Below, one piece after another: positions 7,341 through 16,300 of a stretch of DNA of 20,408 nt. The notes under the pieces were generated by a model. That model was given only the letters and a program-made list of their open reading frames with translations. It was not told the origin of the DNA and made no database searches. Position 1 is the stretch's first letter. Every line of letters starts with the position of its first letter. This DNA comes from a virus (taxonomy: Duplodnaviria > Heunggongvirae > Uroviricota > Caudoviricetes), in IMG/VR virus record IMGVR_UViG_2737471845_000026, positions 1 through 20,408 of that record; one strand, given 5' to 3'. The translations under genes were made by a program, and so were the position numbers.

Positions 7341-7496
7341 TTACTCCTCAGATTCGTAAGCTGTGAAGACAGTGACCTCCGTCTGGCCGGTTCGGATTCG
7401 TACCTCGCAGAGGTCTTTCCTCATTACCAGTGCCGTCACTATGACGGTTAAACAGATGACGATCAGGGCGATTAACATCGCCTTTTGCTGCTTCAT
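7341..7496 (-). CDS. hok: Hok/Gef-family type I toxin (51 aa), closely HokD/RelF-like
   Basis: Translation MKQQKAMLIALIVICLTVIVTALVMRKDLCEVRIRTGQTEVTVFTAYESEE is a Hok-family hallmark. SD AAGGAG 9 nt upstream. The listed 70-aa ORF is an in-frame upstream extension. Confidence 0.9.
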   Translation of the reverse strand: MKQQKAMLIALIVICLTVIVTALVMRKDLCEVRIRTGQTEVTVFTAYESEE

Positions 7497-7834
7497 AGCC
7501 AGCTTCTCCTTGCCTTTCGGCACGTAAGAGGCTAACCTACATGTGTAAAGCATGAAATTGGCCTCAGATTAATGTTAAGCGTCTTGCCGGACGCGTAATG
7601 TTAACTGGGGCTTTTCTCTGTCTGCCTTACAGTGGCATGCCCGAGGCAGACAGCCTCAAGCACCCGCAACAATCTTACCGACACCGATAAGAAAACGCTA
7701 TTTTTTATTGCCAGAACCTTCTGCCCAGGCTAATGTATCCGCGTCAGAACGGCGCAATGCGCTCGCCTGAGATACGTTTACTTGTCATTGGTGGCAACAG
7801 ATAACGGCAATTGTTATTTCTGTTTGTTTCCTTC

Positions 7835-12140: not shown

Positions 12141-12566
12141 TTAATGCACAGCCAGAGTGTTTCCTGCCGGGCCACCACGATTCATCTGATCGAACAGAAC
12201 TATCGCTGATGCAACTAAATCATCGATATCTTTCACCAGCCGTTCCTGCGTCTCCACCAGCTCCCGAAAATAAGCGGAACTGTGGCTGCGCATTCGGGCC
12301 ACCAGCGGAGGCGGCATCGCTTTTTCGATAGCTGGTAACAACGCCTGAATTTTTTTAACCGCGTCAGGGGTATCTTTCTCCAGCCAGCGGAAAATTTTCT
12401 GGGTATTACGGCCCAGGGCTTCCGGATGGCTGTCGTCGAACAGTTCAGGAAACGTCAGACCCAACTCGAAATAAGCCCGGGTTATTTCAGCTGCCGGAAC
12501 TTTTTCACCGTCCGGATATGCCCAGGCATTCATCGCCATGCGGATGTGTTCATGCTTGATTTTCAT
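12141..12566 (-). CDS. YdaT-like protein (141 aa), putative CII-like regulator of the Rac-type immunity region
   Basis: N-terminus MKIKHEHI and size and position (after the cro-like gene, before replication genes) match Rac prophage YdaT as I recall it. Overlaps the upstream gene by 17 nt. Confidence 0.65.
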   Translation of the reverse strand: MKIKHEHIRMAMNAWAYPDGEKVPAAEITRAYFELGLTFPELFDDSHPEALGRNTQKIFRWLEKDTPDAVKKIQALLPAIEKAMPPPLVARMRSHSSAYFRELVETQERLVKDIDDLVASAIVLFDQMNRGGPAGNTLAVH

Positions 12567-12834
12567 GAATCAACCCTATTTTTTTGGATCTGATAATTTC
12601 TTCTGGAATCCCACTAACTGGAGTAGGGTGCAAATCAGGCCGGAGATCATGCGGAGTAACAATCCATTCCCCAAGCTCACAAAGCCTAATAACCCTCTCA
12701 CTAGGAACCCTGTTCCTGATAATCCAATTAAAAATGGATTGAGGCGATTTGAAACCAAACATGCGACTTACAGCAGAGGGAGAACCAATAGCCATAACCG
12801 CCTTTTCTGTAATGTTTTTGTATGTAGTGCTCAT
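12550..12834 (-). CDS. Cro/YdaS-like HTH regulator (94 aa from ATG 12834)
   Basis: First gene downstream of the operator-containing promoter, divergent from the repressor. SD GGAG 6 nt before ATG 12834; alternative ATG at 12846. Confidence 0.65.
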   Translation of the reverse strand: MSTTYKNITEKAVMAIGSPSAVSRMFGFKSPQSIFNWIIRNRVPSERVIRLCELGEWIVTPHDLRPDLHPTPVSGIPEEIIRSKKIGLIHENQA

Positions 12835-12861
12835 CGTTAACTCCATTTCAAGAACGGAAGA

Positions 12862-12889
12862 ATGATACTACATAAAGTAGAATTTGCAA
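12862..12889 (-). promoter_or_regulatory. PR-like promoter with an operator palindrome in the spacer
   Basis: Minus-strand -35 TTGCAA (plus 12884-12889), 16-nt spacer, -10 TATCAT (plus 12862-12867). The spacer contains the palindrome CTAC-N5-GTAG (12868-12880). Confidence 0.5.
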
Positions 12890-12934
12890 CTACGCAAAAT
12901 AGAAATGACGAATCAAGGTAACTGCTTTAATCTT

Positions 12935-12947
12935 CTACATATGGTAG
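12935..12947. promoter_or_regulatory. Second operator-like palindrome CTACATATGGTAG, overlapping the repressor ATG
   Basis: Same CTAC-N5-GTAG half-sites and same GAA flank as the site at 12868-12880; centred 67 bp away. Confidence 0.4.
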
Positions 12948-13393
12948 AAAACGCACATAAACATCGCGCATTCGCAACAAGACTTAAGTCAGAAATGGAT
13001 AGAAAAAACAAATCCATCAAAGACTTAAGCTTATCCACGGGCGTCACATACGAAATGGCGCGGCGCTACACCCTAGGCACAGCTAAACCACGCGACGAAA
13101 AACTCGAACGAATAGCAGAATTTCTGGGAGTTGAACCTGCATGGCTGGAATACGGTCAGCTAACAGAGAAAGGAATTGAACCAGCAGAAGATTCATTTGT
13201 AACACAAAGATCTGGTTCCAATAGCAATGGTGAATTTACTGAGTTAAGTGAAGATGAAAAGCGACTGATACGAACGTTTCGGGAGTTTCCACCAGTTGAA
13301 GCCAAGAATATGCTCCTGGCTTTTGAGATGAGGCTCAAGAAACTTTACGATTTCTACGAGAAATACGCCAGCACCCCACCACCTTCTGAGTGA
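12941..13393 (+). CDS. Prophage repressor, XRE/HTH family (RacR/cI-like), 150 aa from ATG 12941
   Basis: HTH KSIKDLSLSTGVTYEMARRYTLG; divergent from the cro-like gene with operator palindromes in between. Start is ambiguous (ATG 12941 without SD, ATG 12905, or TTG 12884). Confidence 0.75.
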   Translation: MVENAHKHRAFATRLKSEMDRKNKSIKDLSLSTGVTYEMARRYTLGTAKPRDEKLERIAEFLGVEPAWLEYGQLTEKGIEPAEDSFVTQRSGSNSNGEFTELSEDEKRLIRTFREFPPVEAKNMLLAFEMRLKKLYDFYEKYASTPPPSE

Positions 13394-13409
13394 CTTTGTC
13401 TGTTAACAA

Positions 13410-13437
13410 CACCCCGGTATTGCCGGGGTTATTTTTG
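13410..13437 (+). terminator. Rho-independent terminator after the repressor gene
   Basis: Hairpin CCCCGG-TATTG-CCGGGG (13412-13428) followed by TTATTTTT. Confidence 0.55.
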
Positions 13438-13489
13438 CCTTAAAAAACAACTTTATATAGACAAAATACAACACACTCTACTTTTGGTG

Positions 13490-13517
13490 TTGACATATCT
13501 ACTTCAAGTAGTATCAT
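13490..13517 (+). promoter_or_regulatory. PL-like promoter with an operator palindrome in the spacer
   Basis: -35 TTGACA (13490-13495), 16-nt spacer containing CTACTTCAAGTAG (13499-13511), -10 TATCAT (13512-17). Same architecture as the PR-like promoter at 12862-12889. Confidence 0.55.
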
Positions 13518-13590
13518 TCAATCATCAAAGCACAACGGTGCGACAGGTCTTAGTTCCGCTACCCCGGCGTTAAGGGGAAATGAGGTCAGC

Positions 13591-13743
13591 ATGGATACTA
13601 TCGATCTTGGCAACAGCGAATCTCTGGTATGTGGCGTGTTCCCCAACCAGGACGGTACGTTCACCGCGATGACGTATACCAAAAGCAAAACGTTTAAAAC
13701 CGAAACTGGCGCGCGTCGCTGGTTAGCCAGAAACACTGACTGA
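13591..13743 (+). CDS. Small protein, 50 aa, first gene of the PL-like transcript
   Basis: ATG 13591 preceded by GGGGAAATGAGG; translation MDTIDLGNSESLVCGVFPNQDGTFTAMTYTKSKTFKTETGARRWLARNTD; stop TGA overlaps an ATG of the next ORF. Below the 60-aa cutoff of the ORF track. Confidence 0.5.
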   Translation: MDTIDLGNSESLVCGVFPNQDGTFTAMTYTKSKTFKTETGARRWLARNTD

Positions 13744-13754
13744 TGAGGTTGACG

Positions 13755-14393
13755 ATGGAATTTAAAGATTTACCAATATCAATACAGGAAATGGCCGCTG
13801 ATGTGATTCGCTCGCAACTGGCGCGGAACCCAATGATATTAGTAGATAAAGTGTTCATCATAAATTTATCAAATCATGTCCGCAATTCTTTTACCGGACT
13901 GTATTCAGATTCGTTCACAAACAATCATTGTGTAGAAAATAAAGCAAAGCCCATTGCAGAAACGATAACGCAAAACATCAATACGAAACAAACCGAAGAA
14001 GAAATTGACCAGTTTACCCGAGATACTGGCTTAAAATGCAGGAAAGAAAAATCGCCATATGCGGGGAATATGTTTGTTTATGACAACCTTATCCGAATTC
14101 GTGGCGAAATTCCGACTGAATACCTAGCAAGAATTCACCGGGCATTACTTAAAAATCTGGAAACGGAAGTATTTGATGGCAATACCAACGGCTCCTTCGT
14201 GGTGTCAACTCTCGCAAAAGAGTGGGATACAGATAATCGCTGGAATGTTGCCACATGGTTATTCAGCAACAAAGCTGCTGCCCTGGAAGCTGCGGCCTGT
14301 ATTTGCGACCTGCTAAGGACAGACCGCAAATACAACCTGGATGTGTATAGCTATATTTATGCTGAACACTATCCGCTATGGATTAACTGGTAA
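13755..14393 (+). CDS. Uncharacterised soluble protein, 212 aa, AT-rich, in the repressor-adjacent exclusion-gene position
   Basis: ATG 13755 with SD GAGG (7 nt); alternative ATG at 13743. No TM segments or recognisable catalytic motif; lower GC than the core phage genes. Confidence 0.65.
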   Translation: MEFKDLPISIQEMAADVIRSQLARNPMILVDKVFIINLSNHVRNSFTGLYSDSFTNNHCVENKAKPIAETITQNINTKQTEEEIDQFTRDTGLKCRKEKSPYAGNMFVYDNLIRIRGEIPTEYLARIHRALLKNLETEVFDGNTNGSFVVSTLAKEWDTDNRWNVATWLFSNKAAALEAAACICDLLRTDRKYNLDVYSYIYAEHYPLWINW

Positions 14394-14603
14394 TTACAAA
14401 GCTGCACCAGCAGGGCCACGGCGACCAGCGCCACGATTGTAATCAATGATGCCATTATAAAGCGCATTATTTAATTTATCGTCGAATGCCGATTCTGTGA
14501 GCCCTAGCACTGAATGAGTTTTTAATAACCCTGATTGCCTGAGTTGATTAACCAGGCATTCAATCTGTTTTTCAATAATCGGATGTATTGGCTTGTTTGG
14601 CAT
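14394..14603 (-). CDS. Hypothetical protein, 69 aa, convergent with and abutting the 212-aa gene
   Basis: ATG 14603 with strong SD GGAGGATAAA-ATG; the stop codons of the two convergent genes are adjacent (14393/14394). Confidence 0.5.
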   Translation of the reverse strand: MPNKPIHPIIEKQIECLVNQLRQSGLLKTHSVLGLTESAFDDKLNNALYNGIIDYNRGAGRRGPAGAAL

Positions 14604-15290
14604 TTTATCCTCCATTGAAGTTACTGGTTGAGAATGGAGACCACACGTGACAGCGTGTTGTCGTGCGCCGGACACGGATAAGAATCCGGCACTGACAGTT
14701 TACTGAAAGAATATATCCCTGAAAAGTCAGGGCATAACTCGAAAGCGCACGGCGGAGGTGTCTTTTCCTTAGAAGGCTTGTCGTTAGATTTCTTCGACCG
14801 TGCGCTTCCGGTTGTGGCACTCCGCGAAATGGCGCGGCGGTAAGTATGGCGGGGTTATCCTTACCCCATTAGTGGCACCGGGTTGTCAGGTTGACCATAC
14901 GCTTAAGTGACATCCCCGCTGCAACAACCCATGTTGATTACCTTTTGGCGGGTATCCGTTTTTTGTTTTCCCTTGTGATACCAGCCCTTTTTAAAGTGAA
15001 TTTTGTGATGCGGTGAATGCGGCTAAGCGCACGCGGAACAGTTAAAAAGGACAGTTGACATTCGTATTGGTTCTTATGGGTGGGTTATCTGTATCCGGCG
15101 TTAATTGTTAACTGGTTAACGTCACCTGGAGGCACCAGGCATCGCATCAACAAAATTCACTTCAGTGATGAAAGGTGAGAGAAAATGTTGAATGTAGCTA
15201 TTGAAAACCAGAACGGGTGGAATTATAGTGCACCTGCACCTCATAAAACGGGTGCCGGGATTTGCACCCCGATGATCACTAGAGCGCATA

Positions 15291-15312
15291 ACCGCGCCAA
15301 AGCGGTTTTTTT
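15291..15312 (+). terminator. Intrinsic-terminator-like hairpin plus U-tract inside the leader upstream of rha (possible attenuator)
   Basis: ACCGC-GCCAAA-GCGGT followed by TTTTTTT; embedded in a larger inverted repeat GCGCATAA...TTATGCG. Confidence 0.45.
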
Positions 15313-15478
15313 ATGCGTAAAGCGCAGCCACATTCAGATTATGGTGGGGCGTATGGGGCCGTTTTCGGGCGGGCCGGATTCTCTAGTGACCGGTAGTGCA
15401 AACCCTGTACGTCTCACCACCCATGAGATTTGCACCTACGGTGGTGAGTTTACCAACTTATCACTAGAGGCTGCCATC

Positions 15479-16033
15479 ATGGCTACTATCCCTACCCTGT
15501 CTCACCCTGACGTAACCATCGAAAACGGTCGCGCTATCACTACGTCTGTTGCGATCGCAGAGTTCTTTGGCAAACGACACGACAACGTGTTACGTGCCAT
15601 CGCAAACATTGAATGCTCAGAAAAATTTAACGCCCTCAATTTTGAGGACGTAACGTACACCGACGCCAAAGGCGAAAAACGTCCAATGTACCAAATCACC
15701 AAAAACGGCTTCGTTTTCCTGGTGATGGGCTTCACTGGCAAAAAAGCCGCTGCATTCAAAGAGGCCTACATTGCTGAGTTCGACCGCATGGAGGCAGAGC
15801 TGCGTCAGAATAACACCCCACCAACTGACAAAATAATTCCTGGCGATGGTCGCACTCTGGTTGTTCGCTTCGACGAACACGGCAATATCAAATTCACCGA
15901 AACCGTTCCTGATGGTGCAATGGTCTGTACTCTGGATACCTTCCAGTTTTATCTGGAGAAACAGGGATGGACACTTGTAAACCGGAGCGCAATTAGAAAC
16001 ATGACTGTCGAACAATTGCTGCGTATTAAATAG
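15479..16033 (+). CDS. rha: Phage regulatory protein Rha (Rha domain), 184 aa from ATG 15479
   Basis: Rha-domain signature VTIENGRAITTSVAIAEFFGKRHDNVLRAIANIE...ITKNGFVFLVMGFTGKKAAAFKEAYIAEFDRME; SD AGAGG 8 nt before ATG 15479. The in-frame upstream extension to 15185 is judged non-coding. Confidence 0.75.
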   Translation: MATIPTLSHPDVTIENGRAITTSVAIAEFFGKRHDNVLRAIANIECSEKFNALNFEDVTYTDAKGEKRPMYQITKNGFVFLVMGFTGKKAAAFKEAYIAEFDRMEAELRQNNTPPTDKIIPGDGRTLVVRFDEHGNIKFTETVPDGAMVCTLDTFQFYLEKQGWTLVNRSAIRNMTVEQLLRIK

Positions 16034-16078
16034 TTTTCTGGAATTTACTTCATATGACTAATTATTATGGAGATAATT

Positions 16079-16300
16079 ATGATTGCTCATCACTTCGGAA
16101 CTGATGAAATACCACGTCAGTGTGTGACTCCAGGCGATTATGTTCTTCATGAGGGCAGGACATATATTGCATCGGCAAACAATATTAAAAAGCGAAAACT
16201 TTATATTCGTAGCCTGACCACAAAAACATGCATAACTGGCTGCATGGTTAAAGTTTTCCTCGGTCGTGATGGATTACCTGTAAAGGCGGAGTCATGGTGA
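16079..16300 (+). CDS. Hypothetical protein, 73 aa
   Basis: ATG 16079 preceded by GGAG (7 nt); AT-rich; no motif recognised. Confidence 0.4.

Follow-up and report, generated by a model that had tools for sequence, protein, structure and literature searches.

A cassette of two convergent genes downstream of ydfA in a Qin/Rac-type prophage early-left operon

The dicBF operon of the Escherichia coli K-12 prophage Qin (dicA/dicBp/ydfA-ydfB-ydfC-dicF-dicB-ydfD) is headed by a helix-turn-helix (HTH) repressor that has no cleavable domain and by a promoter overlapped by its operator, after which comes ydfA. DicA represses dicBp 22-fold, and a polycistronic transcript starts upstream of ydfA and extends past dicF (PMC10448788). 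The genes located downstream in this operon are toxic (PMC10448788, PMC5069750), and for YdfA, YdfB and YdfC the function is not known in the literature (PMC5069750). Here, we analyse 20,408 nucleotides (nt) of viral DNA, IMG/VR record IMGVR_UViG_2737471845_000026, which will be called the window and in whose numbering all coordinates are given. It contains an operon of this type, in which a gene of 212 amino acids (aa) and an oppositely oriented gene of 69 aa are found where Qin has ydfB and ydfC. This pair of genes is the subject of the present work.

On both sides of the pair the window is quite similar to Qin. The 5' untranslated region together with ydfA is 91% identical at the DNA level, and 14662-15159 is 82% identical to the Qin region between ydfC and dicB. 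The differences, apart from the pair itself, are that the operator and repressor sequences, and with them the immunity specificity, are other ones, that the DicF allele is diverged (the Rfam DicF model gives no match at E<=5), that DicB is missing (tblastn with the K-12 protein gave no match in the window), and that an antirepressor module of the C4/isrK-Rha kind has been inserted.

The prophage Rac has the order racR, ydaG, ydaF (DUF1391), sieB (convergent, with an overlap of 4 base pairs), kilS, kilR and recE. It shares with the window the repressor, the DUF1391 gene, a converging opposite-strand gene with touching or overlapping ends, a small RNA (sRNA), the position of a cell-division inhibitor, and recE. 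It is important to point out that the position of sieB is that of the 69-aa gene only. Rac has no 212-aa gene, and SieB, about 160 aa long, is membrane-located and has a Pfam family of its own, whereas the 69-aa protein is soluble and unrelated to it. In phage P22, a single gene gives both the exclusion protein and, in the same frame, the escape protein, and the antisense RNA has its own promoter, while the window would have two separate genes and an antisense RNA that results from read-through of the operon. The P22 sieB/esc/sas system is nevertheless alike in its logic, with an exclusion function that the prophage expresses from within the early-left region, an early function for escape, and control by antisense RNA (PMC12197685, in part).

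DNA homology to K-12 Qin covers 13552-13734 and starts again from 14662. The comparison thus supports the assignment of 13755-14661 as a mobile two-gene cassette that stands in for ydfB and ydfC, and that consists of the 212-aa gene, the 69-aa gene and the 58 nt upstream of the latter. In one of the related loci (designated by L numbers in the following), L001, the cassette is placed after ydfB and a ydfC-like gene and does not replace them. An initial annotation of this DNA had considered the region to be AT-rich acquired cargo. For the 212-aa and 69-aa genes, the comparison with Qin bears out the cargo part, but the AT-richness is only mild, with a G+C content of 41.0% for the 212-aa gene and 47.7% for the window, which corresponds to the 8th percentile among 650-nt windows.

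We have surveyed 5,426 complete E. coli genomes, using as query the C-terminal half of the 212-aa gene and the entire 69-aa gene. The cassette is present in 623 of them, that is, in about one in nine, and there are many O157:H7 (outbreak strains included), O145, O26 and O111 strains among the matches. In 594 of the 623 genomes, at least 80% of the two-gene query is covered in one place. Two divergent 208-aa alleles of the 212-aa protein led to six extra loci, and all six have the abutting 69-aa gene.

The two genes meet at their stop codons, the plus-strand TAA occupying 14391-14393 and the minus-strand TAA 14396-14394 (GGTAATTACAA), and a strong Shine-Dalgarno sequence (SD), GGAGG, is located 5 bases before the ATG of the 69-aa gene. 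The initial annotation had described this convergence correctly, including the SD and the abutting stops. The true start of the larger gene is almost certainly the ATG at 13755, which gives 212 aa, since a GAGG lies 6 bases upstream of it, PHROG 2151 aligns from that residue, the residues M1-E2-F3-K4 are invariant in homologues, and RefSeq has this start in O157:H7. The stop codon of the preceding 50-aa open reading frame (ORF), ydfA, had been reported to overlap the ATG of the 212-aa ORF. Its TGA does share one base with an ATG at 13743 (TGATG), but that ATG begins an ORF of 216 aa. In two relatives, RefSeq labels the 212-aa gene a truncated pseudogene; the ORF is intact in both. The ratio of nonsynonymous to synonymous substitution rates (dN/dS) is 0.2-0.3 for the 212-aa gene, and up to 0.58 in close pairs, with dS up to 0.87, and it is 0.16-0.27 at dS 0.34-0.6 for the 69-aa gene. 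Both genes are, judged by these values, under purifying selection.

The 212-aa, 69-aa and 50-aa proteins, as well as the distant homologues discussed below, were scanned against Pfam, PHROGs, NCBIfam and PADLOC (PADLOC-DB 2.0). The 212-aa protein matches phrog_2151 over its full length (E=1e-96; PHROG function unknown). It has no match in Pfam, NCBIfam or PADLOC, and the library scans give no housekeeping or structural homology for it. For the 69-aa protein, there is nothing in Pfam, NCBIfam, PADLOC or the PDB sequences, and phrog_4274 is the only match. Searches of the PDB sequences with single sequences and profiles of the C-domain, the N-domain and the 69-aa family gave nothing below E=0.3. 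In PADLOC, a chance-level match of 0.037 was obtained for the 50-aa protein, and none for the 212-aa protein, the 69-aa protein or the distant homologues. Neither of the two cassette proteins matches a toxin or antitoxin family (Pfam, PADLOC, NCBIfam) or belongs to the SieB family (Pfam, PHROG function, NCBIfam, PADLOC), and homology to RexA or RexB was not found (Pfam, PADLOC). The earlier statement that none of the three proteins has a recognisable motif therefore holds in these scans for the 212-aa and 69-aa proteins, but not for the 50-aa protein, which belongs to DUF1391. The 212-aa protein has an isoelectric point (pI) of 5.6 and a maximum 19-residue hydropathy of 1.22. The 69-aa protein is basic, with a pI of 9.0, a maximum hydropathy of 0.32 and a conserved tail, GRRGPAG. 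No transmembrane segment is present in either of them.

We now consider how the pair is inherited. An alignment of 17 homologues shows that the N-terminal third of the 212-aa protein is mosaic, while the C-domain, aa 98-212, is nearly invariant. An exhaustive HMMER profile search over 1.84 billion representatives gave 56 matches, the majority of which share only the first 50-90 residues (MEFKDLP..IQ.IAA...NVR.AF.GLY) and then continue into unrelated C-termini. The N-domain signature, MEFKDLP..NVR..F.GLY, is present in many short phage proteins with other C-termini. Among sequenced phages, examples are found in PPompW prophages (135 aa) and in the Stx2a phage TL-2011c (131 aa). The C-domain is in the same search restricted to Escherichia and Salmonella, and among the sequenced phages of INPHARED we found ydfA and the N-domain but not the C-domain or the 69-aa gene. 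In a distant Salmonella lineage, the C-domain is 36-40% identical and is preceded by a different N-terminus, in one variant with an inserted HTH_3 domain. These genes are located behind a P2-like int/C/Cox switch and not a lambdoid one. They keep a convergent gene of 64-69 aa at the 3' end, the product of which is a homologue of the 69-aa protein of the window with 52-55% identity, including the tail GRRGPAG, and the 3' ends of the two genes overlap by ca 50 nt. The odd convergent geometry is in other words kept across deep divergence and two kinds of phage switch.

Across 8 loci, pairwise identities of the C-domain and of the 69-aa protein are correlated, with a rho of 0.90 for all loci and 0.67 for the close clade, while the rho for the N-domain and the 69-aa protein is -0.06; the pairs in this comparison are non-independent and the genes adjacent. 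In the window and L011, for example, the N-domains are 42% identical, the C-domains 98% and the partner proteins 96%. These comparisons support the view that the C-domain of the 212-aa protein and the convergent 69-aa gene are the units of inheritance, which is not proof of an interaction. N-domain proteins with unrelated C-termini each have a different reverse gene. In the Salmonella loci L006-L008, two cassettes are arranged in tandem, each followed by the same leader. The first contains a 200-aa forward gene and the reverse 69-aa gene. In the second, the forward gene encodes 119 aa and shares the N-domain, while the reverse gene, of 64 aa, is unrelated. The PPompW prophages combine the 135-aa forward gene with a reverse gene of 77 aa and a similar leader logic, and in TL-2011c the N-domain gene has no reverse partner.

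Pore-forming colicin operons consist of a repressed effector gene and an immunity gene that is placed on the opposite strand and expressed constitutively. The layout found here is colicin-like, in that a repressor-gated gene has a conserved N-part and a swappable C-domain, and is followed immediately downstream on the other strand by a small gene that varies with the C-domain. The differences are that there is no similarity in sequence or fold, that the window is a prophage and not a plasmid, and that the regulator is a phage repressor and not LexA. Regarding the fold, the AlphaFold model of the C-domain, with a predicted local distance difference test score (pLDDT) of 78, is a two-layer alpha/beta sandwich, while the model of the full 212-aa protein is unusable (pLDDT 52). 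It can be mentioned that in a loop of the C-domain (aa ~151-163, window ~14205-14245) some alleles have SGPAGAL(E/G)R instead of TLAKEWDTDNRW, which resembles RRGPAGAAL in the tail of the 69-aa protein. An option considered was that this loop substitutes in cis for a lost partner, but it was rejected because such alleles retain the 69-aa gene.

Next, we turn to the leader of the 69-aa gene. Its first hairpin, HP1 (14690-14667, GCCGGA..TCCGGC on the minus strand), is nearly invariant in all lineages, and the second, HP2 (14662-14639), is a hairpin that is maintained by three unrelated sequences. A box that is complementary to the SD at 14613-14609, the anti-SD box CTCCAT at 14639-14634, pairs with it in the minimum-energy folds of the window, L012 and L014. 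The combination of HP1, HP2 and anti-SD is kept across three unrelated reverse genes. In every lineage, there is a -10-like hexamer 6 nt upstream of HP1, namely TAAACT in the window, TGgTATAAC and TGaTATACC in Salmonella, or TAAGCT, and we infer that TTTTCA-17-TAAACT is a weak promoter of the 69-aa gene. The terminator-like hairpin that overlaps the putative -35 (Table 1) may insulate the reverse gene from minus-strand transcription coming from upstream. HP1, which reads GCCGGACACGGATAAGAATCCGGC on the plus strand (14667-14690), hardly varies among prophages of E. coli and Salmonella, independently of what the cassette contains, with homologous sites in L003 (K-12 Qin), L004 and L005. On the left, the conserved DicF-leader region is bordered by this hairpin. 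The reverse mRNA might begin at HP1, an RNase might process the early transcript there, or the hairpin might delimit a segment that recombines.

The state of the forward gene would depend on the promoter in front of ydfA. The segment 13490-13743 is well supported as the start of a Qin/Rac-type (dicB/ydfA) early-left operon, that is, the PL-equivalent promoter and the first gene, the product of which is 90% identical to K-12 YdfA. As the promoter is equivalent to dicBp and the first gene is the YdfA of the dicB operon, the operon is predicted to be off in the lysogen and on upon derepression, on the basis of the operator geometry and by analogy with the Qin data. In a consensus scan for promoter-like sites over 12400-15400, this promoter is the top-scoring one, and its predicted transcription start is at ~13524. 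It lies past the repressor terminator and encloses a CTAC-N5-GTAG palindrome, as the initial annotation had stated. The palindrome had also been said to be shared with the PR-side promoter, and indeed the cro-side divergent promoter (TTGCAA-16-TATCAT, 12889-12862, minus strand) has a copy, 12868-12880, at the corresponding place of its spacer, beside the -10. Such a spacer operator, with the same geometry in both promoters, predicts repression in lysogens, and a single repressor plausibly controls the two. There are three exact copies in the 20.4-kb window (12868, 12935 and 13499), all of them within the immunity region, compared to a chance expectation of 0.11, and three copies were reached in 0 of 100 shuffles. 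One additional copy, at 12890, has one mismatch. For this prophage group, the promoter, the operator and ydfA are an already known element, with nothing new in them. The new part is the widespread and uncharacterised convergent pair, for which no library searched assigns a function. Our confidence in the anatomy of the operon and the cassette is high.

The plus strand has no terminator-like sites in 13429-14947, and there are none on the minus strand in 14717-13072 either. With no terminator between the two genes on either strand, the early transcript would be antisense to the entire 69-aa gene, and the same would hold for the 69-aa transcript with respect to the 212-aa gene. Downstream of the early promoter, the plus strand has its first terminator-like site at 14947, within the DicF-position element, and the primary transcript from 13524 likely ends at the terminator of this element, near 14990.

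On this basis, a mechanism can be formulated. In the lysogen, the repressor bound to the spacer operator would keep the early promoter off, and a weak promoter of its own would give the 69-aa gene a low level of transcription, with a leader that partly sequesters the ribosome-binding site. Upon induction, one transcript would cover ydfA and the 212-aa gene, continue antisense to the 69-aa gene and end at the DicF-position terminator. The firing of the early promoter would shut off the 69-aa gene, both by transcription collision and by the fully complementary antisense RNA, while the 212-aa protein is made. The two proteins would be cognate binding partners with opposing activities, and their complementary charges (pI 5.6 and 9.0) were counted toward a functional coupling. 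A cognate antagonist pair is favoured because in Rac sieB has the same position, and because in P22 sieB is under the control of an antisense RNA and is countered by the Esc protein (PMC12197685). BstA is similar in concept, being a prophage defence that is encoded next to the repressor and needs a built-in escape for the lytic cycle of its own phage (bioRxiv 10.1101/2020.07.13.199331). It is a single large KilA-N protein with an anti-BstA DNA element; the proteins of the window have no homology to it (Pfam, PADLOC).

The antagonism could work in two directions. The 69-aa protein could be a prophage-expressed exclusion factor at the sieB position, with the 212-aa protein as an early escape function for the lytic cycle of the same phage. 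Alternatively, the 212-aa protein could be an early host-directed effector and the 69-aa protein a standing antidote to its leaky expression. The first direction is slightly favoured by the sieB position and by the tight translational restraint on the small gene. As a whole, a convergent-transcription switch combined with protein-protein antagonism is our tentative proposal, to which we give somewhat less than even chances. If it were true, the pair would represent a compact new class of prophage-encoded competition systems, either exclusion/escape or effector/antidote, and would account for the hypervariable spot of the early-left operon beside the DicF/DicB genes.

A wider reading is that the pair is one allele of an unrecognised family of recombining two-gene cassettes in enterobacterial prophage early operons, constituting polymorphic exclusion-escape or effector-immunity sets. 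Each set would have a forward gene with a shared N-terminal adaptor and a swappable C-domain, a cognate convergent small gene, and a shared structured leader. The sets would decide which related prophages can grow in each other's lysogens, and convergent transcription would flip the set between the prophage and the lytic state. In this general form we consider the idea unlikely.

A number of observations weigh against the switch with antagonism. Adjacent genes diverge in parallel simply by being linked, and the pairs that enter the identity correlation are not independent. The forward gene persists in L008, where the 69-aa gene is frameshifted, and in the L016-L018 alleles, where it is deleted, from which it follows that the forward gene alone would be tolerated, at least when repressed. 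The 69-aa protein is unlike SieB in having no membrane segment, and PADLOC matched nothing. The sequestration of the SD is missing in the minimum-energy folds of L010 and L006a. The putative reverse promoter has only 8 of 12 matches, which is below the threshold of the scan. HP1 and the -10-like hexamer occur also in K-12 Qin (L003) and TL-2011c, both of which are without a reverse gene, and they may instead have a role in the plus-strand transcript, such as that of a site for processing by an RNase. Finally, the evidence from G-U pairs about the strand on which the conserved hairpins act is contradictory.

Several of these points lead to the first alternative, namely that the genes are independent and merely linked, the 212-aa gene being an early-lytic accessory for host take-over or anti-defence and the 69-aa gene an opposite-strand 'moron', with no interaction between them. 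The survival of the forward gene after frameshift or deletion of its partner, the N-domain gene of TL-2011c without a reverse partner, and the sufficiency of linkage for co-divergence all fit this scenario, and so does the fact that the slot holds varied pairs (135/77 aa in PPompW, 119/64 aa in Salmonella, and reverse genes of 170 aa or of the DUF1883 family). However, the convergent geometry is retained down to 36% and 52% identity, the pair is retained behind both lambdoid and P2-like switches, and 594 of the 623 genomes have both genes together. We consider independence possible but doubtful.

Another option is that the conserved feature is not the protein but the minus-strand promoter with its leader, which would act as a roadblock or antisense brake on leakage into toxic genes of the DicF/DicB type, the 69-aa ORF being incidental. 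This would explain why the leader and the -10-like hexamer are conserved whichever reverse ORF follows, even in K-12 Qin, where there is none, and the downstream genes of the operon are indeed toxic in Qin (PMC10448788, PMC5069750). It is difficult to reconcile, however, with the purifying selection on the 69-aa ORF given by the dN/dS values above, with the conservation of the protein at 52% identity and with the strong SD, and it is thus quite improbable.

The scenario of the initial annotation, in which a rexAB-like exclusion or anti-defence module is expressed in lysogeny and the 50-aa and 212-aa genes are driven in the prophage state, is very unlikely. It is true that the region adjoins the repressor gene, that it is cargo-like by composition and by presence and absence, and that it has no housekeeping or structural homology. 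But the spacer operator, which is placed as in the cro-side promoter, predicts repression, as measured for dicBp (PMC10448788), and the first gene is the YdfA of the dicB operon. Furthermore, the true slot for cargo cotranscribed with the repressor is located after the repressor gene and upstream of the ydfA promoter, and in the window this rexAB-type slot is empty, as the repressor terminator is followed directly by the promoter; PADLOC gave no match. What remains of the exclusion slot is the sieB position, and this for the 69-aa gene only, not for the 50-aa and 212-aa genes behind the silenced promoter. The least probable option, a conventional toxin-antitoxin or abortive-infection pair with both proteins made together in the lysogen, can point to two small, tightly linked genes of complementary charge and to the common occurrence of such modules in the neighbourhood in relatives, but the genes are convergent with abutting stops and not cotranscribed in one operon as in type II systems, one of them lies behind a repressed promoter, no toxin-antitoxin or PADLOC family matches, and loss of the partner is tolerated.

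Table 1. Positions of the features discussed, in window numbering
Feature	Position	Strand	Details
Intrinsic terminator of the repressor transcript	13411..13429	+	8-bp stem, 6 G-C pairs, then TATTTTTG
Sigma-70 promoter, PL/dicBp equivalent	13490..13517	+	TTGACA (13490-13495), 16-nt spacer, TATCAT (13512-13517); 11/12 consensus
Operator palindrome CTACTTCAAGTAG	13499..13511	.	occupies promoter spacer, abuts -10 hexamer; other exact copies 12868-12880 and 12935-12947
ydfA homologue, 50 aa, DUF1391, first gene of the operon	13591..13743	+	Pfam PF07151 E=4.4e-28; phrog_751 E=9e-36
212-aa cassette gene	13755..14393	+	N-domain ~aa 1-57, variable linker, C-domain aa 98-212 (14046-14390)
69-aa convergent cassette gene	14394..14603	-	phrog_4274 E=2e-40, function unknown
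Structured leader of the 69-aa gene	14604..14690	-	HP1, HP2, anti-SD, SD
Putative weak promoter of the 69-aa gene	14697..14725	-	TTTTCA-17-TAAACT, ends 6 nt before HP1
Terminator-like hairpin	14717..14732	-	CCCTGACTTTTCAGGG then ATATATTCTT; overlaps putative -35
DicF-position element with terminator hairpin	14925..14996	+	aligns with K-12 dicF; 5' body different

Some observations were also made around the pair and in the rest of the window. The neighbourhood of the repressor consists of an HTH_3 repressor with a weak match to DicA, a YdaS-type Cro analogue and a YdaT protein. The repressor ORF (12884-13393, plus strand, 169 aa, TTG start) is probably over-long; relatives are annotated with 132-133 aa, and the operator copy at 12935-12947 overlaps a candidate repressor start, the ATG at 12941. 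In relatives, the rexAB-type slot holds PaaA2-ParE or RelE toxin-antitoxin genes (L011, 4671-5152; L016-L020, for example L020, 1450-1928).

The deletion allele of the L016-L018 type has no equivalent of window 14439-14601. In this allele group, a reverse gene of 170 aa is inserted at the putative reverse promoter, at the equivalent of the 14691/14722 junction of the window (L017, 6671-7402). Its product has a coiled coil and a CxxC...CxxC motif, and neither Pfam nor PADLOC matches it. A reverse gene of the DUF1883 family is found further downstream in L011 and L019-L021, and the stretch from the ydf genes to dicB is a hotspot for opposite-strand genes.

The terminator hairpin of the DicF-position element is GGCGGGTATC..GATACCAGCC followed by T5. 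The allele is found in ~203 of the 5,426 complete E. coli genomes, where it is never annotated, and it may be an sRNA with different targets. After it, the window has a Rha/Ash-type antirepressor ORF of 282 aa (15185-16033, plus strand), which is probably over-extended at its 5' end. The RNA isrK (15236-15312) and the antisense RNA C4 (15337-15424), both confirmed by Rfam, are inside the annotated 5' part. By its predicted content, this is a C4-controlled antirepressor module like immI of P1/P7, with the DicF locus on one side of the insertion and the DicB position on the other. The downstream order in close E. coli relatives is dicB, DUF1482, recE, xis and int, and where these have dicB and DUF1482, the window has a 77-aa ORF (16067-16300, plus strand) with no Pfam or PADLOC match. 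Elsewhere in the window, Rfam identifies a sok antitoxin RNA at 7494-7665 on the minus strand, with 115 bits, which implies a type I toxin-antitoxin locus of the hok/sok kind in this prophage.

The literature searches for ybl81, for the function of DUF1391 and for the RefSeq protein accessions gave nothing useful.

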